This document shows, in pieces, positions 4,769 through 40,410 of a stretch of 64,000 bases of DNA. A program made the translations under genes and the position numbers. Each line of letters opens with the position of its first letter. The first letter of the stretch is position 1. This DNA is from Spirulina sp. (lineage in GTDB: Bacteria > Cyanobacteriota > Cyanobacteriia > Phormidesmidales > Phormidesmidaceae): the NCBI GenBank assembly GCA_044070495.1, contig JBIPSI010000016.1, positions 64,001-128,000 of the forward strand, written 5' to 3'. Below the pieces are notes generated by a model, which worked only from the letters and a program-made list of their open reading frames with translations, did not search any database and was not told the DNA's origin.

Positions 4769-5908
4769 ATGCCCATCTACGACTGCATCATCGTCGGCGC
4801 TGGCCCCGCCGGATCCACCGCTGCCTACCACCTCAGCCGTGCTGGCCATCGGGTGCTGCTCGTAGAAGCCGCTACCCTGCCCCGCTACAAGCCCTGCGGC
4901 GGTGGCGTATCGCCCCAAATTGCCGAATGGTTTGACTTCGACTTCACCCCGGCCATTTCCATCAAGGTGCGGAGGGTGCGCTACACCCTCAACCTGCAAG
5001 ACCCGGTGGAGGCCGAACTACCGGAGGAACGGGCGCTGTGGATGGTGCGGCGCGACCAGTTTGATCACTTCATCGTGCAGCAGGCCCAACGCCAAGGGGC
5101 TACCCTGTGGGACGGCACCAAGGCCAAGGGCATTGAATCTACGGGCGACACCTGGCGCGTTCTCACCAGCCAAGGCACCGTGGAAGGCAAGTTTCTGATC
5201 GCCGCCGATGGATCGCGGGGGTCGATGGCCAAGTGGCTAGGGTTTACCCAGCGTCGCTATCGCCTCGCCGCCGCCATTGAAATTGAGCCACGTCTAGCAG
5301 TGCCCAGCGAACCCGTCATTCATTTTGATTTGGGCCTGCTCAAACAGGGCTATCTGTGGAACTTTCCCAAGGCCGATGGCTACTCCATTGGCGGGGGGGT
5401 GTTTCGGTCGGGCGACCAGCGCAAACAAGACCTACGCGCCCCCGTGGCCGACTATGCCGCCGAATTTGAGGTGGATGCCAAGGCCGTACAACCCTTTGGC
5501 CACCCAATTTTTATTTGGGATGGGCCGCAACCCCTACATACCCACCGTGCCCTGCTGGCCGGGGAAGCCGCCTGTGTGGTGGATCCCTTCACCGCCGAGG
5601 GCATTCGGCCCTCCATCTTCAGCGGGATGAAGGCCGCCGAGGCCGTTTCCCAAGCCCTAGCAGGGGATGACCAAGCCCTGCCCCACTACAGCGACACCAT
5701 GAACCGCGAATGGGGCGAAGAGATGCGCTGGGCCAAACGCCTCGCCCAGGTGGTCTACCAAGCGCCAGGGCTGGCCTATCGCCTGGCGGTAAAACGGCCC
5801 TCCAGCACCCTCACCATGGCCCAAATTTTTGCGGGAGAAGTACGCTACGCCGACGTGGTTCACCGTGCCGTTCAGCGCTTGCTTCGCCCGTCGTTTATGG
5901 GGGATTGA
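4769..5908 (+). CDS. Geranylgeranyl reductase family FAD-dependent oxidoreductase
   Basis: YDCIIVGAGPAG, KPCGGG, IAADG, GEAACVVDPFTAEGI. Confidence 0.88.
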   Translation: MPIYDCIIVGAGPAGSTAAYHLSRAGHRVLLVEAATLPRYKPCGGGVSPQIAEWFDFDFTPAISIKVRRVRYTLNLQDPVEAELPEERALWMVRRDQFDHFIVQQAQRQGATLWDGTKAKGIESTGDTWRVLTSQGTVEGKFLIAADGSRGSMAKWLGFTQRRYRLAAAIEIEPRLAVPSEPVIHFDLGLLKQGYLWNFPKADGYSIGGGVFRSGDQRKQDLRAPVADYAAEFEVDAKAVQPFGHPIFIWDGPQPLHTHRALLAGEAACVVDPFTAEGIRPSIFSGMKAAEAVSQALAGDDQALPHYSDTMNREWGEEMRWAKRLAQVVYQAPGLAYRLAVKRPSSTLTMAQIFAGEVRYADVVHRAVQRLLRPSFMGD

Positions 5909-6014
5909 ACCCGAAAATTACTTTTATATTCAAAATAAAACCCTGGTGTGCGGCAAGATTATCGTAGACCTAGACCCGCCCCCAGATTTAGCCCTAGACA
6001 TTGACCTCAATAGC
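5901..6014 (+). pseudogene. Remnant of a Uma2-family endonuclease gene
   Basis: GIEPENYFYIQNKTLVCGKIIVDLDPPPDLALDIDL aligns with GIEPDNCFYIQNEALVRGKLTLDLDQDPPPDLALEIDL of the intact gene (~7995-8113). Confidence 0.85.
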
Positions 6015-6054
6015 ACATTCATTTTAATAGAAGAACAGCAGTCATGCGATAGCC

Positions 6055-6087
6055 AGAACCCCGGCTTCTTCGAGAAGCCGGGGTTCT
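6055..6087. repeat. Palindromic dispersed repeat
   Basis: agaaccccggcttcttcgagaagccggggttct; related copies at ~8382-8413 and ~16400-16430. Confidence 0.75.
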
Positions 6088-6095
6088 GGTGCAAA

Positions 6096-6753
6096 GTATA
6101 TAACTATTCCGAAATCAGCCTCTCGGCAGGGTGATCAGAATTAGAGATCCCAGGGTTCTTAAAGAACCCTGGGATCTGAGTTTCCAACTATTCCGAAATT
6201 AGTCCTTCGATAGGGAGTGGCTCAGGAATCACGGCAGATTGTGTTGGTCACTCCGTTTCCAACTATTCCGAAATTAGCCATTCGGTAGGGTTGCTTGCCA
6301 GTTCGCTTGGTATTGCTAACGGTGCAATTGCCCAAGTTTCCAACTATTCCGAAATTAGCCCTTCGGTAGGGCAGATCAGGCCAAGGTGCGCAAGCACTAC
6401 GGTATCACGTTGTTTCCAACTATTCCGAAATTAGCCCTTCGGTAGGGCTACTTCGTCATGCACGTCGTCTTGCTTACCTGACCTCAGGAGTTTCCAACTA
6501 TTCCGAAATTAGCCCTTCGGTAGGGGCTGAACAACAAACCTTGACAGGAGAACAGCAAAACAAGTTTCCAACTATTCCGAAATTAGCCATTCGGTAGGGG
6601 GTAAGAGCAAGGTATTAACGACTCTGGCAACTCCGAGTAGTTCCCAACTATTCCGAAATTAGCCCTTCGGTAGGGACCTGATGCTAACGCGACCAATATC
6701 CTTGGTCTTTTTGCTTGGTTTCCAACTATTCCGAAATTAGCCCTTCGGTAGGG
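6096..6753 (-). CRISPR. CRISPR array 1: 8 repeats plus 1 degenerate
   Basis: 36-nt repeat GTTTCCAACTATTCCGAAATTAGCCCTTCGGTAGGG (+ strand) at 6180, 6255, 6336, 6412, 6490, 6564, 6640, 6718; degenerate copy at 6096. Minus-strand orientation is inferred from the 3' TTGGAAAC end and left-end degeneracy. Confidence 0.97.
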
Positions 6754-6895
6754 GTTGAGAATGATTGGTTTGCCAGATCCCAGGGTTCTTCGAGAACCCT
6801 GGGATCTTCTATCCGCAAAATCTCGCTTCATCACAAAGCTGTGCCAGTGCCAGCGCTCTCTTCTATCATACAAAGCGTTCTTGCCTATCATCACC

Positions 6896-7600
6896 ATGGC
6901 TTGGCTTATCTCCCTGCTGGCCCAAACCCCACCCGCCAGCCAAATCGACCTTCTCACCCAGCAGATCGAATTTCTGCAAGATGCCAACTCGCGGATGGCC
7001 GATAGCTTTGGCCAATTCGTCACCCTGGTCAACGTAGCGATTACCCTGGTGGTGGCGTTTATCGGTATCTTGGGGTTCAGTACGCGCCGAGAAATTAAGC
7101 AATCTCTGGATGGCTTAGTGCGGGCCGAGGTGAAAAAGCAGTTGGCCAACACCGTTAAAGCCCAGGTTGAAGACTTGGAGCGCATTATTTTGCGCGAAGC
7201 CGTGGTGGGCCAAACCCAGGTCGATTACCTGCTGCCCATCAGCCCCAGCCCCACCCCCACCGCCGAATATCAACTGCTGAAGGCGAGGGGGTTTCAAATG
7301 GCCTGGATGCCCTACGACCCCGAACGTCGCTATGGCAACAGCCATGTCCTCATCCTCGATTTGCTCACCCCCGACCTCGCCCCAGAACGCCGGGAGGCTC
7401 TCATCACCGACCTCGGCCAACGGCTGCAACACCTCACGAGGCCGCCCGTTCTGGTCATCTATGTGCGGGGGCAGAGCCAAGCTATCACCGATCTCCCCAA
7501 GGCGTTGTACTACATCCCCGTCAACAGCCGGGGCACCCTCCTAGGAGCCGTAACCGATGCGGCCCAGATTGCCTACGCCCTTCGCCAACCCGCCACCTAG
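6896..7600 (+). CDS. Membrane protein with C-terminal REC-like Rossmann domain; candidate Cam2/NARF-type type III effector
   Basis: Coiled segment, TM helix (FVTLVNVAITLVVAFIGILGF), coiled coil, then alternating beta/alpha elements (VDYLL, EYQLLKARGF, VLILDL, VLVIYVRG, YIPVNS). Lies between the two arrays. Start placed at ATG 6896. Confidence 0.65.
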   Translation: MAWLISLLAQTPPASQIDLLTQQIEFLQDANSRMADSFGQFVTLVNVAITLVVAFIGILGFSTRREIKQSLDGLVRAEVKKQLANTVKAQVEDLERIILREAVVGQTQVDYLLPISPSPTPTAEYQLLKARGFQMAWMPYDPERRYGNSHVLILDLLTPDLAPERREALITDLGQRLQHLTRPPVLVIYVRGQSQAITDLPKALYYIPVNSRGTLLGAVTDAAQIAYALRQPAT

Positions 7601-7709: not shown

Positions 7710-8357
7710 ATGGTTACGATTCAACTTCGGCAATTAGAGGTACCCCCAGGGCAGCGTCTGGTGCTGCGCGATGTAAGCTGGGCCGAGTTTAATGCCATTT
7801 TGGCGGAATTGGGGGAGCAACGCAGCACCCGCATTGCCTACGACCACGGACTGTTAGAGATTATGGCCCCTTTACCCGAACACGAGTATTTTAAGGAAAC
7901 CATGGGTGATGCGGTTAAAGATATTAGTGAAGAACTAGATTTAGATTACGAAAGTTATGGGTCTACCACCTGGAGAAAGCAGGCGGCCCAGGCTGGCATA
8001 GAACCCGACAATTGCTTTTATATTCAAAACGAAGCCCTGGTACGCGGCAAACTTACCTTAGACCTAGACCAAGATCCACCCCCAGATTTAGCCCTAGAAA
8101 TTGATCTCACTAGCAAATCGATCCATCGGTTTTCGATCTATGCGCGGCTAGGCATACCCGAAATTTGGTGCTACGACCAAGGCCAACTGACGGTCTACCG
8201 TTTGCAATCTGGAGCCTATCAATCGGTGGCCCAAAGTCTGGTTTTTCCGATGCTTAAGGTACAGGAATTGCCCCACCTAATTGAAGCCCACCGCACCCAA
8301 GGACGGCTGGCCCTACGCCGAGCGGTGAGAGCCTGGGTGAGGGAGCAGATTCAATAA
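7710..8357 (+). CDS. Uma2 family (DUF820) endonuclease
   Basis: VSWAEF, LEIMAPLPEHE, IEPDNCFYIQN, PPPDLALEID, YARLGIPEIW. Confidence 0.9.
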   Translation: MVTIQLRQLEVPPGQRLVLRDVSWAEFNAILAELGEQRSTRIAYDHGLLEIMAPLPEHEYFKETMGDAVKDISEELDLDYESYGSTTWRKQAAQAGIEPDNCFYIQNEALVRGKLTLDLDQDPPPDLALEIDLTSKSIHRFSIYARLGIPEIWCYDQGQLTVYRLQSGAYQSVAQSLVFPMLKVQELPHLIEAHRTQGRLALRRAVRAWVREQIQ

Positions 8358-8431
8358 GAAAATAGCGATTATTCGACAGAAAGAACCCCGGTTTCCTGAA
8401 GAAACCGGGGCTTTAGTGCGAAGTATCCGAC

Positions 8432-8581
8432 TATAACGGTTCTCGATAGAGTGAGATACACCGTTGCTAGGTTCTAGATCCCCCCAGTACCTAGCTGTCT
8501 AAGTTTTACTCTATACCCCCCTTATCAAGGGGGGCAGGGGGGATCATCACAATGTACTTTACCCAAGTGACATCCGCTCTA
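8432..8581. mobile_element. MITE-like element inserted in the terminal CRISPR repeat
   Basis: Imperfect terminal inverted repeats tataacggttctcgatagagtgagataca / tgtactttacccaagtgacatccgctcta, internal ccccccttatcaagggggg hairpin. It splits a degenerate repeat: gtatccgacta | actattccgagaatagtccctcgttagg. Confidence 0.6.
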
Positions 8582-8653
8582 ACTATTCCGAGAATAGTCC
8601 CTCGTTAGGCGATTTCCAATTAAAGACACTGCATTTGACGGCGACACACTGTT

Positions 8654-10234
8654 GTTTCCAACTATCCCGAAATTAGCCCTCCGGTAGGGGGACCTTCTTC
8701 TTCAAGAAATGCCTGATGTTGATGGAGAAAACTCGTTTCCAACTATTCCGAAATTAGCCCTTCGGCAGGGTTCCTGGAGCCTAGTCAACAAGTGGAACAT
8801 GATTCGCACCTTTGCGTTTCCAACTATTCCGAAATTAGCCCTTCGGTAGGAAACATAGGAGAGTAAGTATGAAACCCTGTGGAATTAATGGTTTCCAACT
8901 ATTCCGAAATTAGCCCTTCGGTAGGGTAGGTTATTGGGCAGGTGAGATTACATTTTTCTTCGGTTTCCAACTATTCCGAAATTAGCCCTTCGGCAGGGTC
9001 TTTCGCGCCCTTGAAACAGGGGACGCAAGCGGCCTACTTGGTTTCCAACTATTCCGAAATTAGCCCTTCGGTAGGGCCGCTACCTAAGCCTATCAAGCGC
9101 AATGCTAAGCCTGTGTAGTTTCCAACTATTCCGAAATTAGCCCTTCGGTAGGGCACCCCGCACACGCCGACCAACAACAGACCAATAGGACTTTAGGTTT
9201 CCAACTATTCCGAAATTAGCCCTTCGGTAGGGCGTCCCAGCCCAGCCCAGATCAAGGCCAAGGGTGCTGTGACTGTTATGGGGTTTCCAACTATTCCGAA
9301 ATTAGCCCTTCGGTAGGGTAATGGTGAAATCCAAAACCGAAGCTGGGGGATTGGTTTCCAACTATTCCGAAATTAGCCCTTCGGCAGGGCTGGCAAAACT
9401 TCACCGAGGAGTTGATCGAGGAGGCTATAGAGTTTCCAACTATTCCGAAATTAGCCCTTCGGTAGGGGGTCGCACATTCAACAAGTGTTGAGCACTGCTG
9501 CAACTGAGTTTCCAACTATTCCGAAATTAGCTCTTCGGTAGGGCAACACTGACAATCGCTCTGCTGACTCTTCTACATGCTTTGGTCGGTTTCCAACTAC
9601 TCCGAAATTAGCCCTTCGGTAGGGCACAGAAAAAGAAAATATTGTAGACGGGTTCTATGAGCTAGGGTTTCCAACTATTCCGAAATTAGCCCTTCGGTAG
9701 GGAAGGCTCCTGAAAAAATTGGAGAAGGCCAGGTGGTCCAAGTGTTTCCAACTATTCCGAAATTAGCCCTTCGGTAGGGGGAGAATAGCACTGCCCAAGA
9801 GGTCATTAGCAGTCGTTTCCAACTATTCCGAAATTAGCCCTTCGGTAGGGAAACAGCTTCTCCGGAGCAGGTTCCAGCTCTAGTCTAGGTTTCCAACTAT
9901 TCCGAAATTAGCCCTTCGGTAGGGGCGTTCCAGATTTGGCACTTCGGTTTCACTAAAACAGGCTAGTTTCCAACTATTCCGAAATTAGCCCTTCGGTAGG
10001 GTTCCGTACAATTTGATTGACTTTGTTACGCTTCTGATTGTTTTGGGGTTTCCAACTATTCCGAAATTAGCCCTTCGGTAGGGTCGTGCCCCCTTTGGTT
10101 CTTACAATGCAGGCGTTCTTCTATAACTAAAGACCTCAGTAAGTACCTTAATCAAGTCGTGCCCCCTTTGGTTCTTACAATGCAGGCGTTCTAGATTCGT
10201 TTCCAACTATTCCGAAGTTAGCCCTTCGGTAGGA
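8654..10234 (-). CRISPR. CRISPR array 2: 20 repeats plus a split degenerate repeat at 8423-8610
   Basis: Same 36-nt repeat at 8654, 8735, 8816, 8891, 8963, 9041, 9118, 9197, 9283, 9354, 9432, 9508, 9589, 9667, 9744, 9815, 9889, 9966, 10048, 10199. Spacers are ~35-50 nt except one anomalous 115-nt unit. Confidence 0.98.
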
Positions 10235-10471
10235 AAGTTACGATCAATGGTGGAAAACCACAAAGGATCTCCATCACACTCTAGCCTACCCAAACCGAGA
10301 GGCTGTCCCTAGAATCTGCCAAACATTAAGCCCCCGTGATACGGCGTAGCAAACCGCAGTAAAACGTTATGGTTCGCAGGACAGAGCGAAGAAATCCTTA
10401 AATCTGAGCCGTAATCATTGCTCTTGCCCGTAGCCTTGGCCTTAACGCTCCGCCGTTCCGACACCTAGGCC

Positions 10472-12157
10472 ATGCCCTCGCCTGTCTATACCGCCATCAC
10501 CTTTGCCCCCGTGCAGGGCTTCATCGAAAAATCGCGCAAACTGCGAGATCTCTACGGGAGTTCGCTAATTTTGTCCTACCTGGCGGATCAACTTTGCGAT
10601 GCCGCGAGGGCCACCCTAGCCAGCCCTAATGCCCAATGGCCAGAGGATCCCGTCATTTCCCCAGCCCACATTAACGTGACCCAAGGCACCCCCAACCAAA
10701 TCCTGATTCGGGGAGAGTTTTCTGAGCCTGTCGCTGCCCAAGCCTTCAAAACCGCTTGGCGCGACCTGTGCAACACCTGTCGAGCGTGGATCGAAACCCA
10801 GGTTAGCACCCAACCCAACGGCCAACCCTGGGCCTACCACTGGGCGCGGCCTTGGCAAGAATGGGTCAACCATGCCTGGGAATTTTTCCATGCCACTGGC
10901 CCCAGCCCAGAACAGGCCAAACAAACCTTGATGGCCAAAAAACAAGCCCGTGCCTGGACGGGGGTGAACTGGGTGGGCGAAAGTTCTACCCTGTCGGGGC
11001 TAGATTCGCGGGCGTGGCCCTTACTGGGGCGGCACTCTCCCCACCAACGCCCCAAGGCCGAAGAAGAGACCGAAGTCACCACCTTTTACCAACAGCTCAG
11101 CGAGGCCATCGGCGCAACCGGAGAAGCCATCATCACCCCCAGGGAACAGCTCAGCATTCCCGAACTGGTGAAACGGCTGGTGACGGTGGAGGCCGTGGTG
11201 GGCCACAACCCAGAACTGGGTACCCTAATGAGCTTTAAAGACCTCAACCGCTGGCACGATCCAGAGGTAGACGACCTGCCCGACGAAGCCCAGCGCCGTC
11301 CCGAAGACTCCCAGCCGGGACGCTGGACAGGCTGGTTTCAGGGCGATGGGGATCGTGTCAGCGACCATTTACGGGGACAATCCCCCGATGCCCTCCACGA
11401 CTTTAGCCATCAACTGCGGCGGTGGGGTCGCCAGTTGCCCCGTCATCTGCCCAAAGCCACCACCCAGCGCCGCACCCTAGATCGCGATGGGCGGATCATC
11501 TATGCAGGCGGCGACGACTTCCTGGGCGTCCTCTATCGCAATGAACCCGACCCACCCTTGGCCCCCGCCGAGGCCGTGGCTTGGCTGTCGCAGTTTCGTT
11601 CCCACATTTGGAGTCTGCACCAGCAGCCGATTACCGTCAGCGTGGGCTTTGTGTGGGCGGCCCCCAACGTGCCCCAGCGAGACGTGTTGCAGCACTGCCG
11701 CGAAGCCCAGGACTCGGCCAAGCAGCACGGACGAGATCGCATTGCCTTTCGCCTTCTGTTTAACGGTGGCAACTGGCTAGAGTGGGTCTGTCCTTGGTGG
11801 TTGCTAGAGGCGGGGTTGCTGGAGTCTTACCGAGATCGCAACGGGGTGCAGGGAACCACCAACGCCCCCAACTGGACACATCTCTATAACGACATCGCCA
11901 CCCTAGAGGCCCGCCACGGCTTTGATGCCCAGGGTGATGTGGCCCTAGCCCTGGTGACGATCTACTTTGGAGAAGACCTCTGTACCCTCATCCGTCAGCA
12001 CCGTTGGGATACCCCAGACCGCACCGGAATTTTGGGCCACTCCGCCCCAGAGGCCATCGCGATCACCGCCTGGGTGATCGCCCTCGCCAAGGTCGGCTTC
12101 CATCTGCATCGCCTTGGGGTTAACCGGGACTACATCGCTACCCCCATAGCCGCCTAG
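10472..12157 (+). CDS. cas10: Cas10/Cmr2, short form without HD domain, GGDD intact
   Basis: ITFAPVQGFIEKSRKLRDLYGSSLILSYL at the N-terminus, WFQGDGD, IIYAGGDDFLG; 561 aa. Confidence 0.93.
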   Translation: MPSPVYTAITFAPVQGFIEKSRKLRDLYGSSLILSYLADQLCDAARATLASPNAQWPEDPVISPAHINVTQGTPNQILIRGEFSEPVAAQAFKTAWRDLCNTCRAWIETQVSTQPNGQPWAYHWARPWQEWVNHAWEFFHATGPSPEQAKQTLMAKKQARAWTGVNWVGESSTLSGLDSRAWPLLGRHSPHQRPKAEEETEVTTFYQQLSEAIGATGEAIITPREQLSIPELVKRLVTVEAVVGHNPELGTLMSFKDLNRWHDPEVDDLPDEAQRRPEDSQPGRWTGWFQGDGDRVSDHLRGQSPDALHDFSHQLRRWGRQLPRHLPKATTQRRTLDRDGRIIYAGGDDFLGVLYRNEPDPPLAPAEAVAWLSQFRSHIWSLHQQPITVSVGFVWAAPNVPQRDVLQHCREAQDSAKQHGRDRIAFRLLFNGGNWLEWVCPWWLLEAGLLESYRDRNGVQGTTNAPNWTHLYNDIATLEARHGFDAQGDVALALVTIYFGEDLCTLIRQHRWDTPDRTGILGHSAPEAIAITAWVIALAKVGFHLHRLGVNRDYIATPIAA

Positions 12158-12167
12158 GAATCACTGA

Positions 12168-13232
<1,065 letters not shown>

Positions 13233-13317: not shown

Positions 13318-14127
13318 ATGTACCACAAAGCCTACGGCATCATCGAAACCCTAGCCCCGCTCCATATAGGGGCCAGCGCCGGAGAAGAAACCGGAAACCT
13401 CAACCTGATTTTTCGCGACCAGTTCACCCAAACGGGCATTATTCCCGGTAGCTCGATTCGGGGGCGGTTCCGGGCCGATATGCGGCAGATCGACGGAGCT
13501 TCTGCCCAGCAGTGGTATGGCCATGAGGCCGTGGCGGGGGCAGAGGATGGCGGCACCACCGAAGCCCTGGTGAAGTTTGAGTATGCATCGTTGGTGTGGC
13601 TGCCAGTGTTCTGTCCAGGCCAGCCGATTTTATGGGTAACGTGCCCTTGGCTGCTGAAGCGCTACCAACGCATTGCGGAGATTGCCGATCCGATTCCCGA
13701 CCCCTACACAGCCTCCCCCGGTCTTCAGGGCCGCCAGGTGGGCACCGGAGGCAAAGTGTTGTTTTTCAACCTGGGCTTTCTGACGCTGGAACATGAGGTG
13801 GATTTGTCCCCCTGGATTCCGGCGGGGGTAGATCTGCGGGCCGATAGCTTAGTGGTGGTAGACAACCGCGACATCAGCATGATCCACGACATGGCCCTCT
13901 ATCGCCAAAGCCGGGTGCGCCTAGAGGATGACCAAAAGAAAGTGGCATCGGGCGCTTTCTTTAATGTGGAAGCCCTACCGGAGGGCTGCATTTTGGTGTT
14001 TCCGGTTGCCCTCAAAGCGCCAGACTGGCAACCCTTTGGTTCGGCCCAGACCCAGGAACTTTACTTTGGCGGGCTAGAATCCATCGGCTTTGGCCGTTGT
14101 TACGTCACCCTAGCGGGAGGGAATTAG
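13318..14127 (+). CDS. cmr4: Cmr4 (Cas7 group RAMP)
   Basis: TLAPLHIGA, IPGSSIRGRFR, EALPEG, FGGLESIGFG glycine-rich loop. Confidence 0.9.
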   Translation: MYHKAYGIIETLAPLHIGASAGEETGNLNLIFRDQFTQTGIIPGSSIRGRFRADMRQIDGASAQQWYGHEAVAGAEDGGTTEALVKFEYASLVWLPVFCPGQPILWVTCPWLLKRYQRIAEIADPIPDPYTASPGLQGRQVGTGGKVLFFNLGFLTLEHEVDLSPWIPAGVDLRADSLVVVDNRDISMIHDMALYRQSRVRLEDDQKKVASGAFFNVEALPEGCILVFPVALKAPDWQPFGSAQTQELYFGGLESIGFGRCYVTLAGGN

Positions 14128-14129
14128 TC

Positions 14130-14525
14130 ATGGCTTGGGAATCCTACGGACTCGATCAACTGGCTCAACAACTGGTGTTAGATGCCAAGGCCAGGGAACC
14201 GCAATCCCTGAATCAGGCCTACAAAATGCGGATGGCCACCGCCTACGGCCTAGAGCGTTTTTGGGGCGAACATCTGCGGCTGCAACGGCGAGAACTGAAT
14301 GCCTCTCTGTTTTGGCAAGAAACCTGGGCCGCCTTGGTAACGGTGATGGCCCGCGCTGGGGTCAACCTGCCGAATCAGCGGGTGAACTCCGACGATGTGG
14401 CCTCCATTCGCGCTATTTCCGAAGCCCTGTGGCAGTTGCCCCTCAGCGACCAGCGGGTGGCCCTAGCGGTGTTGACCCAGCTTTGCGACAGCCTCGTTTG
14501 GTGGACGCAGCGCTACAAGGGGTAA
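14130..14525 (+). CDS. cmr5: Cmr5-like small subunit (Cas11)
   Basis: 131-aa helical protein directly after cmr4, with C-terminal WWTQRYK. Confidence 0.7.
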   Translation: MAWESYGLDQLAQQLVLDAKAREPQSLNQAYKMRMATAYGLERFWGEHLRLQRRELNASLFWQETWAALVTVMARAGVNLPNQRVNSDDVASIRAISEALWQLPLSDQRVALAVLTQLCDSLVWWTQRYKG

Positions 14526-14649
14526 GTCGGGTTCACACACCCGTAACGCACTTGATTTATAAGGCTTTGATGCCTGACGCTAGCCCATCCTCCAGACTTC
14601 CAACCCTCCCATTGCGCTGATCTGGCTTAGGTTTCAGCTTTTTTACCCA

Positions 14650-16386
14650 ATGCCCTCGACCATGCCAACTTCACCTAACATCCCAAACATAACCACTCGC
14701 GTACCCATGATGTTTCGGGCACAGGTGCCAGGTCGCTGCCAACTTCAGCGCATTGATCCACAGCGTAGTAAGGACGGCATCGATCAAGATGTAGAGCGTT
14801 GGGTGGATGAGTGGATTGATAAAACGAGCGACGATCCGCCCCAATCTAGCCGCACCGAAAACAGCCGCGTGTACGACATCACCTGGCGGTTTGTCACCAA
14901 TGGCGGCCAAGACGATGGCATCATTCGTCCGGTGATTGGGGCCTATGGCTGGCCTGTATATCCGGGCAGCAGTATGAAAGGAGCCTTTCGCCAAGCCTGT
15001 ACCATTACCCAAGCCGACCGTTACTGTGGACGGGCCGTTGGCCAAGATTTCCAGCCTGGTATTTTGCGATTCCACGGGGGCTATCCCACCAGTACCGACT
15101 GGACGGATGGCCTGGTGGATATCATCCACCCTCAACAGGATCGCCAGGTTAAGCAGGAACAAACGACCAGCGCCTTTGCCCAAATTTCCCTCTATCAGCC
15201 CCAGTTGCGGTTTGCCATCTCCAGCACCGAACCCCTAGAGGCCACGGAATGGGAGATCATTTGGCAAATTTGGGAGCGGGCGTCGCACAACGGCCTGGGC
15301 TGCCGCGTTAGTGCGGGCTATGGCCAGGTTCTCTTGCCTGCGGATCGCCCAAAAAATGGGGATTCTGGTGAAGTCCTATTCCAAGCCCATCTAAAGGGGC
15401 AGGGGCAAGCGCCTAAGTTGATTGATCAGGCTGGGGAGTTTCGGCCCAATGTATTCCGGGCGGCGGTGCGGGGCCATGCCTTGCGATTATTTGGTGGCCT
15501 AACTTCGGCAGAGCAGGCGGAGGCGTTGGTCAACGGTCTCTTTGGCAGTGTGCGAGGCAGTGGCGATGTGGGACTGCTGGCCCTCCAGTTTCAAACTCGC
15601 CATTTAACCTTGGACAGCTACGGCACCGGGAAATGGGAGCAGCCCACCTATGCCGTAGATGGTGATCTATCTTGGCGACTTACCCGATCCTTACCAGATG
15701 CCGACCAGCGGACAGCGTTAGCAAATTTGGTGCGGGCGCTGATGCATTTTTCCATGGTGTTTGGCGGCTTTGGCAAATCCTGGCGACGGGCCGATCATCG
15801 CCTCTTTTACCCCGACTATGCCGAGCAACCCAACAAGCCCCTGATTGGTTGCCACTGGCAATGGGGGGCCGAGTCCCTTCAGCAGAACTATCAAGTTCGC
15901 AAGTCAGAGCAAATTCCCTCCTTCCTAAATGCCGTACGGGGCGTGGCGCGGCAATGGATTCGGCTCCAGGGGGCCGAGTCTAACCAGCGGGCCACCCACT
16001 GGCGCGAAGCTTGGCACCCGCAGACGGTTCAAGTGTGGGGGCGCGTAGCCACCCACCAAGACGACAGCCTCGCCATCGAATGGTTGCACCGTCCCTATCA
16101 AGAGGCGATTCGGGCGGCTGGCATCCCCGAAGGATCGATCTACAAAACCTCGGTCACGGGAGAACTGGGGCGCATTGGTCGTCTATGGCATCGGATGTAT
16201 CCTGTGGTGCGGCTGGCAAAACGGAAGGATGACCCCCAGGGCAAACCCAGGGCCATTCTGCCGCCAAATCCCCAGTATTTAGAACTTCTGACCCTTTTTC
16301 CGGATGATTCCACGGAATACCAGCAATTTCTGCAATTTCTTCAGCAGCAGCAAACGGCGTTTACCCCGCTTTGGCCAGCACCCTAG
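14650..16386 (+). CDS. Cmr6-Cmr1 fused Cas7 RAMP protein
   Basis: Two RAMP units: PVYPGSSMKGAFR...GLGCRVSAGYG (Cmr6-like) and FRPNVFRAAVRGHALR...GGFGKSWRR (Cmr1-like). Confidence 0.8.
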   Translation: MPSTMPTSPNIPNITTRVPMMFRAQVPGRCQLQRIDPQRSKDGIDQDVERWVDEWIDKTSDDPPQSSRTENSRVYDITWRFVTNGGQDDGIIRPVIGAYGWPVYPGSSMKGAFRQACTITQADRYCGRAVGQDFQPGILRFHGGYPTSTDWTDGLVDIIHPQQDRQVKQEQTTSAFAQISLYQPQLRFAISSTEPLEATEWEIIWQIWERASHNGLGCRVSAGYGQVLLPADRPKNGDSGEVLFQAHLKGQGQAPKLIDQAGEFRPNVFRAAVRGHALRLFGGLTSAEQAEALVNGLFGSVRGSGDVGLLALQFQTRHLTLDSYGTGKWEQPTYAVDGDLSWRLTRSLPDADQRTALANLVRALMHFSMVFGGFGKSWRRADHRLFYPDYAEQPNKPLIGCHWQWGAESLQQNYQVRKSEQIPSFLNAVRGVARQWIRLQGAESNQRATHWREAWHPQTVQVWGRVATHQDDSLAIEWLHRPYQEAIRAAGIPEGSIYKTSVTGELGRIGRLWHRMYPVVRLAKRKDDPQGKPRAILPPNPQYLELLTLFPDDSTEYQQFLQFLQQQQTAFTPLWPAP

Positions 16387-18335: not shown

Positions 18336-18713
18336 TGAACCGATTGGTACATAACGCCAAGGCGAGGCTAGCGCCAACGCGAAGCAATGCACCAAAGCCA
18401 TATACAGGGAAATTCGTGATGAGTAAGCGGTGCATTGTGGCCAAAATGATTGATCGCGCCATTGCCGAAAATGTTGGTGCCGCGAATGTACCCTACGGCT
18501 ATGGCGAGACCTAAACGCAGTTTTCAGACGGGCTATTGCTACCACGTTACGGTTCGCTGCAATAACCGCGAGTTTCGATTAATTCGGGATGAGTGCCGGG
18601 AGATTTTGCTGTACGCCTTGGAGCGCTGCAAGGCAACATACGGCTTCAAGCTCTATGCCCTGTGCATTATGAGCAACCATGTGCATTACCTGATTGAGCC
18701 TGGTGGGGTAGAA

Positions 18714-18769
18714 TTCAAAGTTCAAAGTTCAAAGTTCAAAATTCAAAGTTCAAAGTTCAAAGTTCAAAA
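18714..18769 (+). repeat. Heptamer tandem repeat (TTCAAAR)x8
   Basis: Direct reading. Further direct copies at 19133-19160 and inverted copies at ~19184-19213. Confidence 0.9.
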
Positions 18770-19143
18770 TGGAAAAGTCTGTTCAGCCCATTACGGAGAG
18801 AACGTTTGCGTTTGCGGTGCGGATTGTGAAGCTCTGTCAGACGGTGGGAGCTACGATGGGGGTGAGCCAGCCTTTGGTGAGGCAGTTGATCCGGTCGGGA
18901 ACATCGGTGGGGGCTAATGTGGAGGAAGCGCAGGCGGCGCAAAGTCGGGCAGATTTTATCCACAAAATGGAAATTGCGCTGAAGGAGCTACGGGAGACTC
19001 GCTACTGGTTGCGCTTGCTAGTGGCGACCGACTTGGTGCCAGAGGAGCAAATGAGGGGATTGATGGGTGAGGCGGAGGAGTTGGTGAAGATTATGTCGAA
19101 GATTGTGGTGAATACGAAGGCGAGGAATAAAGTTCAAAATTGA
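18769..19143 (+). CDS. Four helix bundle protein (23S rRNA IVP / TIGR02436 family)
   Basis: ERTFAFAVRIVKL, QLIRSGTSVGANVEEA, SRADFIHKMEIALKELRETRYWL. Confidence 0.92.
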   Translation: MEKSVQPITERTFAFAVRIVKLCQTVGATMGVSQPLVRQLIRSGTSVGANVEEAQAAQSRADFIHKMEIALKELRETRYWLRLLVATDLVPEEQMRGLMGEAEELVKIMSKIVVNTKARNKVQN

Positions 19144-19697: not shown

Positions 19698-21971
19698 TTA
19701 CAAGTCTCTGTGCGAGAGAAGAGATGCCCACCCCCCCCAAACCCCCCCAGGAAATTCTCCTGCGGGGGAAAAAGAAGGGTTGGCTTTTAGGTCGCTGTAG
19801 TTCAGGTAGCTTCCGTCCTTGCGCCAGCCGACGCGATCTGCAAAGTCTTCCCAAGTTTCTTCATGATACTTGCCATCGAGCGGGTTGCCGCATTCCACAT
19901 AAAGTTGCTTTTGTACGCTGAAGCCAAACTTGCCTTGGCTGTACTTCACCCATAGCCCATCGAGGTGCAGCAAATCAGGGCAAGGAAAGTTGAGTAGCTC
20001 ATTCGAGTAAAGAATTCGTCCAAACTCTTTGCCATAGGTTTGCAGCATCAAGCGCCAGGTTTCCTCATCGGATTCTCTCCATTGGCCCTGTTGCAGGTAT
20101 TCCTCTAGCTGGCCAAAACGGCGGATTTTGATATCGGCCACTAGGTCATCATCTAAACGGCGGCGGTTAACGCGCAGGCAATCGTAGGCTAGGGATGCGG
20201 CGGCGTGGCTGCGGCGATAGGCGGCACGGAGCAAGTTGGTGGGGTTGACCTGGGCAACGTAGAGCAGAACGGTGCCCTTCCAGTATTCGTTGTCGAAGTT
20301 TTGCAAAAGCAGGTCTTCGTAGCTGGGGTCTCTTTGTACCTGATCTTTGATTTGGGTGGCGGCTAGGTATTCTTGAAAGCTGCGGTGGGCAAATTCGTAG
20401 CCGTCGTCTTTTTTCACCAGCAGTTCGCTCACCCGTTCAATGGTTTGGAGAAAGGGGCGAGGGGCAACGGTTTCGTCCTGGTCAGCCAAGCCCTGTTGAA
20501 TCAAGTCGAGCAGGGCATCGACGGGAATCACCTGCTGTTCGGCCTTCACCATGGCCAGAGCGACGTTTTGTAACACGGCCTGACTCGCCTCGGCGGGCAG
20601 GGGCAAATCCACCTTTTTGGCCATGGGGCGATCTCCCAGTTGCAGTTTGCAAATGCCGGAATATAACTCGGCCTGACGCTGGGGCAGTTGTTCGTTGGGG
20701 TAGCTGCGGTGAAACATGGCGATCATATTCAGCATCAGCGGATTTTCGGCCATGCTTTCCAGTTCTGGGCGATTGTCGATTTGGCTCAGCAGGTTTTCGG
20801 CCCGTTGCTTGGCAGCTTCTTGCACATCGGGTGTCAGGCGGTTGCCCCGATGAAAGCGCTCTTGGCACAGATACCACTGCTCCACAAAGCGGCGGCGTTG
20901 GTCTTCGTCAAAGGGTTGCACGGCTAGGGGCGTTTGCACCCTTTCGGCGGAGTAATCGGTGTCGTAGGCGGTGGGGCGCGAGGTGAGAATAAACACCGTG
21001 TTTGGGTACGCCTGCATTTGGTGGGTAATCCACTGGCTAACGGCGGGGCGCTGGGCTTCGGCAACTTCGTCAAAGCCGTCGAGCATCACCAGCAGGCGTC
21101 CGGTGTGCAGCAGGTTTTCGGCCCAGGAGGTCGGGATATCTAGAGCCTTGCCCTGGGCTAGGGCTTTGGCATGATGCTGGGTGATCAGTTCTGGCAGGGC
21201 GGGGGCATTGGGCTGGGCAATCGTGTCTCGCCAGGTGCGGAGGTACAACAGCACGGGGATAAGGCGAGGGGCTTTGTAGCGACAGCGCACCAAGCGAGGG
21301 CGAGTGGCATAGAGATAGGTGAGGTGGCGCAGCAGGGTGGTTTTGCCAAAGCCGCCGTAGGCTTTGATCACCAAATGGCGAAACTGGGGCGTTTTGGCAC
21401 TGAGGGCGAGGATATCCCAAATTTGCTGGGTGGGCCGCTCCTGCATCTGCTGAAGGATGTCTTCGGGCTTGTCGCCAAAGCCGGGTAAGGTGGGCAGGGC
21501 TTGGCCTTCAAAATTACGCAAAAACTCACTGCTGAGCTTCAGCGGTACATAGACTTCATCCAGGTCAGGATTCAAAATGCCAGAGGGCAGGGGTACTTCG
21601 TTATGGCTCACATAGGCACGACAAGCGCTGGCCTGAGCTTTGAGGTACTGGCCTTCCGTTCCCGAAAAGCGCCAACGAATTGCCCGATCCAGCCGATCAA
21701 GGAAAGCGACCAAGGCATCGGCATCCTGGGTGCCACGCTCCCCGGCAATTTCCCCCAACCGAGCCGTAAAGTTGCCCGTATACCTGGCCCACACCGCCGT
21801 TACCACCATGGCCGGAAACGTGAGCATGGCCATCGCCCACTCTTGCTGAAGTAAAAAGTGTGCAAAGGCCCAGCCACTCCCCCCCAACGGGCTCCACTGG
21901 ATCAAGGCATCCACAGCCTTTTGTACGTAGCGACGTTCAGGGCTGGAATTCGGGGCAGGTGGCTGAGTCAT
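19698..21971 (-). CDS. NACHT (STAND) NTPase with N-terminal TM helices and C-terminal GUN4 domain
   Basis: VYVPLKL, Walker A AYGGFGKT, Walker B LVMLDGFDE, ILTSRP, NPLML, FAHRSFQEYL; GUN4 motifs WRESDEET, FPCPDLLHLDGLWVKYSQGKFGFSVQK, VGWR. Confidence 0.88.
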   Translation of the reverse strand: MTQPPAPNSSPERRYVQKAVDALIQWSPLGGSGWAFAHFLLQQEWAMAMLTFPAMVVTAVWARYTGNFTARLGEIAGERGTQDADALVAFLDRLDRAIRWRFSGTEGQYLKAQASACRAYVSHNEVPLPSGILNPDLDEVYVPLKLSSEFLRNFEGQALPTLPGFGDKPEDILQQMQERPTQQIWDILALSAKTPQFRHLVIKAYGGFGKTTLLRHLTYLYATRPRLVRCRYKAPRLIPVLLYLRTWRDTIAQPNAPALPELITQHHAKALAQGKALDIPTSWAENLLHTGRLLVMLDGFDEVAEAQRPAVSQWITHQMQAYPNTVFILTSRPTAYDTDYSAERVQTPLAVQPFDEDQRRRFVEQWYLCQERFHRGNRLTPDVQEAAKQRAENLLSQIDNRPELESMAENPLMLNMIAMFHRSYPNEQLPQRQAELYSGICKLQLGDRPMAKKVDLPLPAEASQAVLQNVALAMVKAEQQVIPVDALLDLIQQGLADQDETVAPRPFLQTIERVSELLVKKDDGYEFAHRSFQEYLAATQIKDQVQRDPSYEDLLLQNFDNEYWKGTVLLYVAQVNPTNLLRAAYRRSHAAASLAYDCLRVNRRRLDDDLVADIKIRRFGQLEEYLQQGQWRESDEETWRLMLQTYGKEFGRILYSNELLNFPCPDLLHLDGLWVKYSQGKFGFSVQKQLYVECGNPLDGKYHEETWEDFADRVGWRKDGSYLNYSDLKANPSFSPAGEFPGGVWGGWASLLSHRDL

Positions 21972-27358: not shown

Positions 27359-28466
27359 CAATCCGGTGCAGCCCGTTCTGGCGATGCCGCCCGATATGGC
27401 CCTGTGGCAGCAGGGCGAGGCGATTGCAGACCCGGCGGCCCGCTGGCGCGTCTACCTGCATCATCTGGGATTCGCGGCCCTGCAAGCCTGGGTACAGGAG
27501 GAATGGGATCAACCGCTGCGGCTCTGGCCCGTCAACGCAGCGGAGCTCTGGCCGTGGGTGGAGGGGCTGGCCCTGGGGCTGGGTGATCGCCGCCTGGTGG
27601 TCATCCTCAGCGAGGCGATTGATGCCAGTGCTCTGACGGTGCCCCAGGAGTGGGTCGATATTCCCGGTTGGGCGGCGGACTACTACCTGGCGGCCCAGGT
27701 GGATGTGGACGAGCAGCGGCTGGTGCTGTGGGGCTATGGCACCCACGCCCAGGTGAAGACTCAGGGGCACTACGAACCGAGCGATTGCACCTACAGCCTG
27801 AGCGACGACGACCTAATTCAAGATTTTTCGGTCTTTTGGGTAGCCCAACAGCTCGAACAGCCCCAAACCTTTTCCCTGCCTGAGTTGCCTCCCCTCTCAG
27901 AGGCCCAGGCCGAGCGCCTGATCGATCGGCTGGTCTATGCGGTGGAACCGAGACTAGAAATTCCCTTTGAGCAGTGGGGGGCGCTGCTCAGCGATGAGGG
28001 CTGGCGGCAACGGCTCTGGCGACAGCGGCGGGGGATGGTGGACCTGAGCGGCTGGCTGAGGGATTTGGTAGAACCGGGCTGGCGATCTCTGACTTCGCTG
28101 TTGCCCCGCACTCCGGCTTTGGGGTTTCGCTCCAGCGGTACTCAAAGTGCGACGGTCAGTCGGGGCAAGGCCATCTGGCTCAGTCCTCCCGACTGTTTCC
28201 TAGTGCTGGGCCTGCGGGTGACACCCACCGAGGATGATCGCCGCCGTATTAGCGTGCAGCTCTTTCCCACCGATGTGGACCTGCTGCCTGTGGGCATGAC
28301 CCTGACTCTGGAACTGCCGGAAACCGGAGAGCCCCTGCAAACGGTGCAGGCGGGGGGGCAGGACAACTATATACAAATTCCCAGTTTTCGCTGTCCGCCG
28401 GGGCAGCGGTTTCGGGTGAGCATTCAGCTGGCAGATGCTATCGTGCAGGAGGACTTCGTCAGCTAA
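27342..28466 (+). CDS. DUF1822 family protein
   Basis: VPQEWVDIPGWAADYYLAAQVD, WGYGTH, LSGWL...GW, C-terminal beta domain (DNYIQ); overlaps the sigma stop. Confidence 0.85.
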   Translation: MSLVFDNPVQPVLAMPPDMALWQQGEAIADPAARWRVYLHHLGFAALQAWVQEEWDQPLRLWPVNAAELWPWVEGLALGLGDRRLVVILSEAIDASALTVPQEWVDIPGWAADYYLAAQVDVDEQRLVLWGYGTHAQVKTQGHYEPSDCTYSLSDDDLIQDFSVFWVAQQLEQPQTFSLPELPPLSEAQAERLIDRLVYAVEPRLEIPFEQWGALLSDEGWRQRLWRQRRGMVDLSGWLRDLVEPGWRSLTSLLPRTPALGFRSSGTQSATVSRGKAIWLSPPDCFLVLGLRVTPTEDDRRRISVQLFPTDVDLLPVGMTLTLELPETGEPLQTVQAGGQDNYIQIPSFRCPPGQRFRVSIQLADAIVQEDFVS

Positions 28467-28470
28467 TGCG

Positions 28471-30837
28471 ATGGAACAGCGCCTGTTGCTCAATCTGGGC
28501 CAGGGCGATTGGCACACCGGCTTTGCCAGCGTCACGGCTCAGCTTTGGGAAAATGAGCAGCCGCCCATGCAGTTTGTCGGCAGTTTGCCGCCGATGCCCC
28601 AGCTAGCGGCCCAGTACCAGCGCTGGCAGCAGCTTTACGAGGCTATCTACGGCAGCCAGAGCCGCTGGCGACGGTCGGCATCGCCCTTTGAGTTTGAAGC
28701 GGGGGCGCTCACCCATGTGTCGCACCAGGAGTTTGCCACCCTCTGCACCACCCTGCACACCGATCTAAACCAGTGGCTGATGGCGGCCACCTTTGCCCCC
28801 ATCGAGCGCCGCCTGCGCACGCACCTTTCGGCCCATGCCAACCTTCAGGTCATGCTCACCGCCCACGCCAAAGCGGTGCTGCGGTTCCCCTGGCGTCTGT
28901 GGCACTTGTTTGACGACTATCCCAATGCCGAACTCTCGTTGAGTCTGCCTGACTACGGACGCGCCCTGAAGCAGAGTCAGGGCAATTCCACAGGAACGGT
29001 CAGAATTTTGGCGGTGCTGGGCACAGACACCGGTATTGATATCGAAACCGATCGGCGGATTTTGAGCCAGTTACCCGACGCTGAGGTAACGCTGCTGGCT
29101 CAGCCCAACCTGAGGGAATTGCAGCATCAACTCTGGGAGTCCAGCTGGGATATTTTGTTTTTTGCGGGACACAGCAGCAGCCAGGGAAAGGGGCATCTCC
29201 AGGTCAACCCCACTGAATCACTAACCATTGAGCAGCTCAAATACGCCCTGCAACGCACCATCACTAATGGCTTACAGCTAGCGATTTTGAACTCCTGCGA
29301 CGGGCTGGGGCTGGCCTGGGATCTGGCGGATCTGCACCTGCCCCAAACCATCGTGATGCGGGAGCCGGTACCCGATGCAATCGCCCACCAGTTTCTCAAG
29401 GGGTTTTTGGCCCGGTTTGCCAGCGGTCAGCCCCTCTACAGCGCCGTGCGCGACGCCCGCGAACGGCTCCACGGCCTAAGCGAGCTGGGGATCTGCGCCG
29501 CCTGGCTGCCCGTGATTGTGCAAAACCCGGCGGAGGTGCCCCCCACCTGGCCACAGTTGGCGGGGCAACCCCAGGCGCAACCCACGCCCCCGGCGATGAC
29601 GCGGTTTCGGCCAAATCCGGCCCAGCGGCGGGTGGGCCTGGGCTGTCTGGCGATGGCCGCCACGGTTTTGGCCCTGCGCTGGTTCGGCTTCCTGCAACCG
29701 GCGGAGCTGTGGGCCTACGATGCCCTGCTGCGATCGCGCCCCCCAGAAACGCCGGACTCTCGCCTGCTGCTGGTGACGGTGGACGAGAGCGATATCCAGG
29801 CCCAAGCGGGGTTAGAACGGCGGGGTTCGGTAGCCGATGAGACCCTGCTCCAGACGCTGACCCTGCTGATGGAGGGGGAACCCCGCCTGATTGGCCTCGA
29901 TCTGTACCGCGACTTTTCGGCCAGCGATCCGGCCCTGGTTGAAGCCCTGGGGCAGCCCCATCTGGTGGGGCTGTGCAAAAGCCGGGATGCGATCGCAGGC
30001 TCGGTTGGCATCAGCCCGCCGCCAGAACTGCCCGCCACCCAGGTCGGCTTCAGTGACTTTATTGAAGAGGCCGATGGCCGGGTGCGGCGGCAACTGCTGA
30101 CCCTGACCCCCGACCCGGCTTCGCCCTGCACCTCGCCCTACGGCTTTGGGGCGCTGATCGCGATTCGCTACCTGCAAGCCACCGGGCTGCAACCCCGGTT
30201 TACCGCCCAGGGCGATTTGCAGATCGGGGAGGTGGTCTTGCCCCGGTTGACCAACCGCACTGGCGGACTGCAACGGATGGACAGCGGCGGCAATCAGATC
30301 CTGCTCAACTACCGCGCCCTGCCTACCCCCGACCAGATCGCAGCGACGGTTTCCCTCCAGCAGCTTTTGAATGGGCAGGTGAATTTGGAACGGCTGCGTG
30401 ATCGCATTGTCTTAATCGGCGTCACGGCCCCCAGTGGCGGCGATTACTGGTCTACCCCCTACGGCAGCCAGGGGCAGGCCCGAACGGCAGGCGTGTTTAT
30501 GCAGGCCCAGATGATCAGCCAGATCGTCAGCGCCGTGGAGGACGGGCGGCCCCTGATCTGGGTCTGGCCCCAGTGGGCCGAGGCGCTGTGTATTGCGGTG
30601 GGGGCGATTGCCGGTAGTCTGCTGGCCTGGCGCTGGCGATCAGCCCGGCTAGCTCTAGCCTGTGCGCTAACCACGAGTGCGCTGACTGTAGTCGCCTGGG
30701 CCACTCTATTCACAGGCGGATGGCTGCCGCTGTTGCCCACCCTGGTAGCCCTGAACAGTAGCGCGTTATTAACCGCTACCCTAACCCGCCCATCAGACCG
30801 ATATCTCCCTCTGAAATCAGCCGATGGGGGGCCGTAG
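28471..30837 (+). CDS. CHAT (caspase-like) + CHASE2 membrane sensor
   Basis: CHAT dyad FFAGHS ... LAILNSCDG, then a TM, CHASE2 (AYDALLRSRP, IGLDLYRD, DGRVRRQLL, RIVLIG, GVFMQAQM) and three C-terminal TMs. Confidence 0.9.
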   Translation: MEQRLLLNLGQGDWHTGFASVTAQLWENEQPPMQFVGSLPPMPQLAAQYQRWQQLYEAIYGSQSRWRRSASPFEFEAGALTHVSHQEFATLCTTLHTDLNQWLMAATFAPIERRLRTHLSAHANLQVMLTAHAKAVLRFPWRLWHLFDDYPNAELSLSLPDYGRALKQSQGNSTGTVRILAVLGTDTGIDIETDRRILSQLPDAEVTLLAQPNLRELQHQLWESSWDILFFAGHSSSQGKGHLQVNPTESLTIEQLKYALQRTITNGLQLAILNSCDGLGLAWDLADLHLPQTIVMREPVPDAIAHQFLKGFLARFASGQPLYSAVRDARERLHGLSELGICAAWLPVIVQNPAEVPPTWPQLAGQPQAQPTPPAMTRFRPNPAQRRVGLGCLAMAATVLALRWFGFLQPAELWAYDALLRSRPPETPDSRLLLVTVDESDIQAQAGLERRGSVADETLLQTLTLLMEGEPRLIGLDLYRDFSASDPALVEALGQPHLVGLCKSRDAIAGSVGISPPPELPATQVGFSDFIEEADGRVRRQLLTLTPDPASPCTSPYGFGALIAIRYLQATGLQPRFTAQGDLQIGEVVLPRLTNRTGGLQRMDSGGNQILLNYRALPTPDQIAATVSLQQLLNGQVNLERLRDRIVLIGVTAPSGGDYWSTPYGSQGQARTAGVFMQAQMISQIVSAVEDGRPLIWVWPQWAEALCIAVGAIAGSLLAWRWRSARLALACALTTSALTVVAWATLFTGGWLPLLPTLVALNSSALLTATLTRPSDRYLPLKSADGGP

Positions 30838-40336: not shown

Positions 40337-40410
40337 TATCCTGTGAGCACATCGTTTGGCTCACCGTTAACGATAAATTTAGGGCCAGATACCATATAAG
40401 AGCAATCTCT

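Follow-up and report, generated by a model that had tools for sequence, protein, structure and literature searches.

How does a type III CRISPR-cas locus act on an infected cell when its Cas10 protein appears equipped to make a nucleotide signal and no known receiver of such signals is encoded nearby? In type III systems in general, it is established that binding of a target transcript by the Cas10-containing complex leads to production of a nucleotide signal, and this signalling is known to work by way of CARF or SAVED sensors, with a few special cases besides. The question is raised here by a cmr locus of Spirulina sp. (Cyanobacteriota; assembly GCA_044070495.1), located in a stretch of 64,000 nucleotides of contig JBIPSI010000016.1 (positions 64,001 to 128,000 of the forward strand). 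This whole stretch is referred to as the window, and coordinates are window positions. The window Cas10 carries IIYAGGDDFLGV; its GGDD motif occupies residues 346-349, and no HD dipeptide is present in its first 260 residues. Pfam and NCBIfam searches found no CARF, SAVED, NucC or CorA family among the open reading frames (ORFs) of the window. Both observations had been made in an initial sequence-only reading of the window, and both hold.

The same reading had singled out a gene between two CRISPR arrays as the likely second-messenger effector. This gene lies 2.9 kb upstream of cas10 and encodes a protein designated P0001. Our analysis suggests that P0001 acts as a membrane effector for the neighbouring Cmr system and is activated by a nucleotide, a reading to which we give a probability of about 0.55. 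The earlier proposal is supported in this form as a prediction, in which effector function and ligand are what we infer. The protein family concerned was already catalogued and was not discovered in the window, and P0001 is a divergent member of it. The window locus, in which a single candidate effector accompanies five cmr genes with a short HD-less Cas10, offers a compact test case.

A catalogued family linked to type III loci

The P0001 ORF is a real gene on which purifying selection acts. Compared with a 97%-identical orthologue, it shows 30 nucleotide differences, 20 of them at third codon positions, and the codon changes comprise 19 synonymous and 8 non-synonymous ones. The reading frame stays open upstream to a TTG at 6755. 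The start is nevertheless placed at the ATG at 6896, because homology with the closest relative (locus L025, which carries a block of this gene plus a Uma2 gene with 94.5% DNA identity) begins just 10 nucleotides 5′ of this ATG, and because Met-1 is conserved in 95% of relatives (alignment, n = 84). On the same grounds we rejected an upstream start at 6755 or 6761, from which the protein would gain a second hydrophobic segment; this stretch is not conserved in L025.

Its profile matches place P0001 in C3a55 / Mem_02, an already catalogued family of type III CRISPR accessory proteins. The PADLOC profile Mem_02 (PDLC01156) matches residues 10-230 on profile positions 25-234 of 235 (E 9.2e-39, 131.6 bits), and C3a55 (PDLC01054) matches with E 1.4e-33 and 114.9 bits; both profiles also match the nine relatives scanned with P0001, and thus ten of ten family proteins. 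C3a55 corresponds to cluster 55 of a published survey, which lists it as a type III-B/D accessory cluster and scores its association positively, at 44.44 (Shah et al., RNA Biol 2018/2019, PMC6546367). P0001 shares with this family both the full-length profile match and the location beside a type III CRISPR-cas locus. Two catalogue descriptions deserve comment. Mem_02 is described in PADLOC as a ‘membrane protein (2TM) with a globular domain’, of which ‘2TM’ suits few members, a second hydrophobic peak being present in only 5 of 57 genomic copies. The ‘ABC permease’ label of C3a55, which goes back to Shah et al., is without support here and calls for correction, since no ABC or permease family match was found among the members scanned.

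C3a55 / Mem_02 is very probably the family later named Cam2, to which it is likened by published description and not by sequence. Cam2 has been described as having an N-terminal transmembrane (TM) region that varies in length, together with a C-terminal REC-like domain; it occurs in 26 type III loci, once beside NucC and twice beside SAVED-CHAT, and the Cas10 proteins of these loci are HD-less and cyclase-positive (Hoikkala, Graham and White, NAR 2024, PMC11229360). Each feature of this description that we checked is found in P0001 or its surroundings: an N-terminal TM segment (by hydropathy), a C-terminal REC fold (in the model), a cyclase-positive, HD-less Cas10, no known effector family in the window and, among its relatives, co-occurrence with SAVED-CHAT effectors of the type associated with cyclic triadenylate (cA3). 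As far as the published account of Cam2 extends, neither protein has an associated histidine kinase. P0001 departs from that account in its short Cas10, its position between two arrays and the lack of a SAVED or NucC gene in cis (PMC11229360).

The architecture named in the sequence-only reading was ‘Cam2/NARF’, and the two halves of this label fared differently: Cam2 is right in substance, by description, and the link to NARF (Nucleotidyltransferase-Associated Rossmannoid Fold, Pfam PF20299) is weak. The nearest named ESM Atlas clusters (scores 0.88 and 0.85) carry NARF in about 30% of their members, yet P0001 itself has no NARF match at E up to 1. NARF is the Pfam family matched by the largest number of relatives, but weakly and in only 4 of 84 (best E 0.0013); a scan of 401 genomes from the phylum gave no match above the cut-off, and a literature search found no paper on it.

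A search of 1.84 billion proteins yielded 113 family representatives at 50% identity, and the named hits are all cyanobacterial. A family copy is present in 10 of the 401 sampled genomes of the phylum, and full-length copies were found in 47 of 301 genomes of one family of filamentous cyanobacteria, at 51 places. P0001 is at most 37% identical to Nostocaceae-type copies, and a related-locus search with a 13-row alignment returned only two near-identical records. To assess linkage, 57 full-length family loci in 53 genomes were taken and all Cas10 palm2 matches there were mapped. On the same contig, 41 of the 57 loci lie within 10.2 kb of a palm2 match, whereas less than 1% of these genomes is that close to one (an arithmetic estimate from 163 matches over about 400 Mb). 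Twelve of the remaining 16 loci were examined by Pfam and with a tblastn panel of 35 Cas proteins, four on short contigs being left out; five of the twelve, situated at the end of a contig or next to a Tn3 transposase, adjoin cmr or RAMP genes or a fragment of Cas10. With such contig-edge and disrupted loci counted, 46 of the 57 adjoin type III interference genes. These counts overstate the number of separate events, since related genomes are not independent. The sequence-only reading implied that homologues would be linked to cas10, and so they are.

The family gene adjoins four module types, namely short-Cas10 III-B, long-Cas10 III-B, III-D-like with Csx21, and csm. Two truncated copies were left out of the tree, which was built from the other 55 and contains a clade of 19 rows, 16 of which stand beside long-Cas10 III-B modules, and a clade of 30 rows, 21 of which stand beside III-D modules, each with a Shimodaira-Hasegawa-like approximate likelihood ratio test (SH-aLRT) value of 99. 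The subtype labels change 7 times each on this tree, against about 16-17 times when shuffled, and orphan copies nest within CRISPR-linked clades; P0001 forms a long branch and its position is unsure. Nine neighbouring Cas10 proteins were examined: GGDD is kept in all nine, and seven have no HD dipeptide in the first 260 residues, the other two having one at 145 and 258, respectively. Of the 57 family loci, 8 have a SAVED gene no more than 10 kb away, and in four of these it is directly adjacent, with CHAT-SAVED in L017 and TIR-SAVED in L014. This co-occurrence fits a protein that would read the same signal as the SAVED effectors.

Some further proteins and gene remnants were encountered in these searches. 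Proteins of about 370 residues from filamentous cyanobacteria match only positions 9-116 of the family profile (E 1e-5 to 1e-8); one of them, at L068 1416-2531, opens with a signal-like segment that ends in AQP and also contains a coiled coil, a single TM helix and TPR repeats at the C-terminus. Such partial matches reflect either a shared membrane module or a composition-driven match. Damaged family copies (proteins P0003, P0008 and P0011; loci L011/L013, L026 and L030) include three frameshifted or truncated database proteins, a two-piece copy in genome G394, and shortened ORFs of 170 and 211 residues in G599 and G452; they could reflect a cost of carrying the gene.

A receiver-like domain on a predicted membrane-anchored stalk

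The gene and the predicted parts of its product are as follows.

6896..7600, plus strand: gene for the Cam2-like protein P0001 (ORF call; 234 amino acids; ATG at 6896, TAG at 7598-7600)
6896..7015, plus strand: N-terminal region, residues 1-40; starts with a brief hydrophobic segment (LLAQ-P), which precedes a conserved helix bearing Q23, F26, L27 and F38; net acidic
7016..7078, plus strand: single TM helix, residues 41-61, predicted from hydropathy
7085..7213, plus strand: long charged stalk helix, residues 64-106, ending in the near-invariant E101 and flanked by R64, R65 and K68
7214..7597, plus strand: predicted receiver-like (flavodoxin-like) domain, residues 107-234, of five strands, modelled at a pLDDT (predicted local distance difference test) of about 86-97; contains the conserved Y111, R131, F133, D155, Y189 and N210
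7358..7360, plus strand: GAT codon of D155, which alone is invariant among 84 relatives; located where strand 3 ends and aligned with the receiver phospho-acceptor Asp

Hydropathy analysis gives P0001 a single hydrophobic peak at residues 41-59 (Kyte-Doolittle mean 2.62), and the peak recurs at the equivalent relative position in nearly all of 127 relatives, which bears out, at the level of hydropathy, the TM segment first noticed in the sequence. In an AlphaFold2 model built from the 84-row alignment (mean pLDDT 88.1), a helix at residues 14-59 contains the membrane segment; after a turn, residues 64-106 form a second, long helix and residues 107-234 an alpha/beta domain of five strands. This second helix stands where a coiled coil had been proposed; its coiled-coil nature is plausible from the model. 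Residues 1-40 would face outwards and the stalk and C-terminal domain would be cytoplasmic, because a net-acidic stretch precedes the TM segment and R64, R65 and K68 follow it, in keeping with the positive-inside rule. Across the family the N-terminal part varies in length, often including a Pro/Thr-rich linker, and retains the short hydrophobic start and the conserved helix.

As anticipated, the C-terminal domain resembles receivers in its fold. A structural search with the P0001 model gave 6swl_A as the best match (Z 12.3, root-mean-square deviation 3.0 Å, 121 residues aligned, model residues 105-234); receiver domains match residues 101-234 at Z 10-12.3 and account for most of the 50 best matches listed. 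Foldseek placed the pseudo-receiver AmiR (PDB 1qo0) first with E 6e-5, followed by the FixJ and XynC receivers. This likeness does not extend to sequence. No Pfam or NCBIfam family matches P0001; the receiver family Response_reg (PF00072) is likewise missing from the 25 families listed for 84 members at E<=1, and the 69 receivers detected when the genome was scanned in six frames with Response_reg do not include the P0001 gene. The family profile compared by sequence with solved structures gave nothing below E 0.7, its alignment by hhalign with 19 receivers of the same genome reached a probability of only 9.7%, and a PHROGs search returned nothing meaningful. As to the sensors that are typical of type III signalling, Pfam, NCBIfam and PADLOC gave no CARF or SAVED match for P0001, and neither domain is among the 50 matches listed in either structural search, a distant relation still being possible.

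Conservation within this fold is concentrated at particular places. In addition to the invariant D155, the residues E101, Y111, R131, F133, Y189 and N210 are kept in 93-99% of the 84 relatives. Y111 lies in strand 1, Y189 at the end of strand 4 and N210 just after strand 5; R131 and F133 are at the end of helix 1, and E101 is at the end of the stalk helix. The equivalences between these positions and those of receivers are read from the low-probability alignment (9.7%) together with the strand ends of the model, which agree in putting D155 at the end of strand 3, in the phospho-acceptor position. By the same reading, the Thr/Ser and Lys positions of receivers are V190 and V209 in P0001 (Ala in most relatives), and the acidic pair that follows strand 1 in receivers has no counterpart. 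P0001 is like CheY-type receivers (PF00072) and AmiR in its five-stranded flavodoxin-like fold with an Asp at the end of strand 3, and unlike CheY-type receivers in sequence, in the missing elements of the phosphorylation site, in a loop that replaces helix 2 in the model, and in being membrane-anchored. The pattern of conserved residues at the strand ends points to a pocket on the face that receivers use for their chemistry, probably one that does not serve phosphotransfer. E101, Y111, R131, D155, Y189 and N210 are the residues that we single out for mutation.

A predicted route from nucleotide signal to membrane, and its alternatives

The interference genes that would generate the signal form a block downstream of the second array.

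10472..12157, plus strand: short cas10/cmr2, 561 amino acids, beginning at the Cmr2_N match; GGDD at residues 346-349 (nucleotides 11507-11518)
12174..13232, plus strand: cmr3 (PF09700)
13318..14127, plus strand: cmr4 (TIGR02580)
14135..14620, plus strand: small ORF in the cmr5 position, without a family match and named by position only
14650..16386, plus strand: cmr6, 578 amino acids (PADLOC Cmr6, 707.8 bits)

In the mechanism that we propose, the Cmr complex would bind a target transcript and its HD-less GGDD Cas10 would make a nucleotide signal. The signal would then bind the cytoplasmic receiver-like domain at the predicted pocket that the strands form at their C-terminal ends; Y111, D155, Y189 and N210 come together there with R131 nearby, and the conservation of these residues suggests this step. 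The resulting change may pass along the stalk helix (64-106) to the single TM helix and the conserved outer helix of a presumed oligomer, so that the membrane would become leaky or depolarised and the infected cell would stop growing. This last step is proposed by analogy with Cam1, Csx23 and Cap15. Cam1 and Csx23 are TM effectors of type III systems that bind cyclic tetraadenylate (cA4), and they are comparable to P0001 in having an N-terminal membrane part, a cytoplasmic sensor and a proposed loss of membrane integrity (PMC11229360). Their sensor folds differ: according to that description, Cam1 uses a CARF domain and Csx23 a fold of its own, whereas P0001 has a receiver-like domain with no CARF or SAVED match. 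For Cam2, its authors predicted binding of cA3 and disturbance of the membrane, and reported no experiments; the suggestion of cA3 was made because of the SAVED-CHAT neighbours (PMC11229360).

We also put forward, more tentatively and with the balance somewhat against it, a wider proposal. The receiver domain is the most common signalling module of bacteria. The receiver-like domain described here might constitute a third independent class of Cas10-nucleotide sensor, beside CARF and SAVED, in which a relic phosphorylation pocket would hold the signal close to the invariant Asp, the two conserved Tyr residues and the conserved Asn and Arg, and in this minimal short-Cas10 system the only output in cis would be membrane failure, triggered by target-RNA recognition, through a single-pass oligomer. 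If this is true, a receiver domain has been re-used for a CRISPR nucleotide signal, and both a new sensor class and a new membrane coupling would be added to type III immunity.

Several points weigh against P0001 as a nucleotide-activated effector. In the structural search, receiver domains tie in score with cobalamin-binding flavodoxin-like domains, so that the fold alone says little about the ligand. One TM helix per chain cannot form a pore by itself and an oligomer must be assumed; a complex prediction with three P0001 copies scored 0.02 (mark 0.42), which speaks neither for nor against one. Longer forms in which the receiver-like domain is fused to another effector were not found among the family, although this is weak evidence. 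The comparison with Cam2 is by description only, no Cam2 accession having been found in the text and examined supplement of the paper; a literature search found no experiment on any family member, and for later work on Cam2 it returned only PMC11229360 itself. Linkage is also incomplete, with no cas gene within 10 kb at 4 of the 53 family loci examined and only cas6, cas1 or cas2 nearby at another 3 of the 53. Among short-Cas10 loci (open frames of 500-660 residues), only about 3 of 49 have the family gene nearby, and this Cas10 clade does not therefore depend on the gene; of the co-occurrence expected at the outset, linkage to cas10 stands and a regular partnership with short-Cas10 loci does not.

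Furthermore, a second type III locus lies on a different contig of the genome (L069 3060-17652); it holds RAMP genes, a 541-residue Cas10, Csx3, WYL, Cas1 and Cas2, and a protein whose Card1-type CARF match is weak (24.3 bits, the cut-off being 24.6). With CARF and Csx3 at that locus, P0001 need not be the sole signal output, and a signal made at the window locus could be read in trans by the second locus, or the reverse. Scans of the same genome for SAVED and APE2256 gave nothing, but control genomes gave no signal either; the SAVED profile did detect genes in other genomes.

Among the alternatives, the one that survives best, though we regard it as unlikely, is that P0001 is a membrane tether, which anchors the Cmr complex or CRISPR RNA (crRNA) processing at the cytoplasmic or thylakoid membrane while its receiver-like domain binds a Cas protein. 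Such a role was proposed for uncharacterised membrane proteins of type III loci in a preprint (Shmakov et al., bioRxiv 10.1101/270033). A single-pass helix is typical of anchors, and co-inheritance with subtype would suit a protein partner as well as a ligand. However, the most conserved residues cluster where the strands end, at the pocket that receives small molecules in receiver-like folds, and are not spread over a broad surface, the gene adjoins four unrelated module types with widely differing Cas proteins, and SAVED effectors are often adjacent.

Slightly less probable again is a regulatory pseudo-receiver, which would sense an envelope or membrane cue through the outer helix and control CRISPR expression or activity by protein contacts, in the manner of AmiR. 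AmiR, the best Foldseek match, is itself an unphosphorylated receiver-like regulator with a coiled coil; conservation of the outer N-terminal helix (Q23, F26, L27 and F38) suggests that the outside part is functional, and in the window the gene lies divergently beside an array. These observations must be set against the lack of a DNA- or RNA-binding output domain in P0001, the cyclase motif kept by nine of nine linked Cas10 proteins, as expected if a signal is made, and the published reading of the family as an effector (PMC11229360).

It seems improbable that the gene is a hitch-hiker without CRISPR function, which, like Uma2, XisH/XisI and DUF29 genes, merely accumulates in the variable surroundings of cyanobacterial CRISPR loci. 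Such regions are rich in small mobile genes, the window gene itself lies between arrays beside Uma2 in a locally duplicated stretch, and the four loci without a nearby cas gene would be accounted for. The proximity of 41 of 57 loci to Cas10, against less than 1% expected by chance, is difficult to reconcile with this explanation, as are subclades that track subtype, orphan copies that nest in CRISPR-linked clades, and the positive association score published for the cluster (Shah et al., PMC6546367). In two of the three short-Cas10 loci, moreover, the gene directly adjoins the cmr operon and runs in the same direction. Finally, a canonical response regulator, phosphorylated by a histidine kinase on the invariant D155 that aligns with the phospho-acceptor Asp, can be largely dismissed, given no Response_reg match in P0001 or at its gene in the genome scan, V190 and V209 in place of Thr/Ser and Lys with no acidic pair (alignment probability 9.7%), and no kinase gene adjoining P0001.

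Surroundings of the gene in the window

The position of the P0001 gene between two arrays, as originally described, was confirmed, with 9 repeats on one side and 20-21 on the other. The features nearest to it are the following.

6083..6754, no strand assigned: CRISPR array 1, with 9 repeats of about 36-37 nucleotides, the leftmost degenerate
6841..6869, plus strand: weak sigma-70-like promoter match, GTGCCA-17-TATCAT, 27 nucleotides 5′ of the start codon
7710..8357, plus strand: Uma2-family putative endonuclease gene, matching PADLOC PDC-S17 (a candidate defence profile) with E 8.3e-44
8578..10235, no strand assigned: CRISPR array 2, with 20 repeats, preceded at its left end by a degenerate copy; the repeat is that of array 1

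The promoter match should be read in the light of its background, since sigma-70-like matches are no commoner here than in shuffled sequence (3 found against 4.3 expected). Contigs from four metatranscriptome runs, belonging to three studies, cover part of the P0001 ORF at 90-99% identity. This coverage is a weak hint of transcription, because such libraries can contain DNA; the same contigs leave the Uma2 gene uncovered, from which no conclusion is drawn. P0001 and Uma2 were considered as a two-gene module and rejected as such, the pair being kept only in the near-identical relative and not adjacent elsewhere. Uma2 genes are found inside or beside 4 of 10 related loci examined (L014, L019, L021 and L022).

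Array 1 is likely to be transcribed from the minus strand, because its repeat in the minus-strand reading ends in GTTGGAAAC. The DNA to the right of array 1 and of array 2, in the leader positions, shows no real similarity. Their left flanks, by contrast, are duplicated: a remnant of the 3′ part of Uma2 at 5901-6018 is 83-87% identical to 7995-8118, and the similarity continues between 6023-6107 and 8350-8434 (85 nucleotides, 72%). Comparison of 5901-6107 with 7995-8434 suggests that a segmental duplication may have created the second array. At the right end of array 2, two identical 37-nucleotide spacers (10083-10119 and 10156-10192) lie 73 nucleotides apart, and a repeat-to-repeat spacing of 151 nucleotides is found there.

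A perfect palindrome of 33 nucleotides is present in four copies that are 73-94% alike (6055-6087, 6145-6177, 6775-6807 and 8382-8414). The copy at 6775-6807 also occurs within unrelated contigs of three metatranscriptome runs, and the palindrome is therefore taken to be a dispersed repeat. An ORF resembling REP-associated tyrosine transposases is located at 18450-18917. Further along the window, genes resembling those of conflict systems encode NACHT-GUN4 (19698-21971, minus strand), CHAT-CHASE2 (28435-30837), a patatin-like phospholipase (40309-41472) and TPR-CHAT (44900-47491) proteins.

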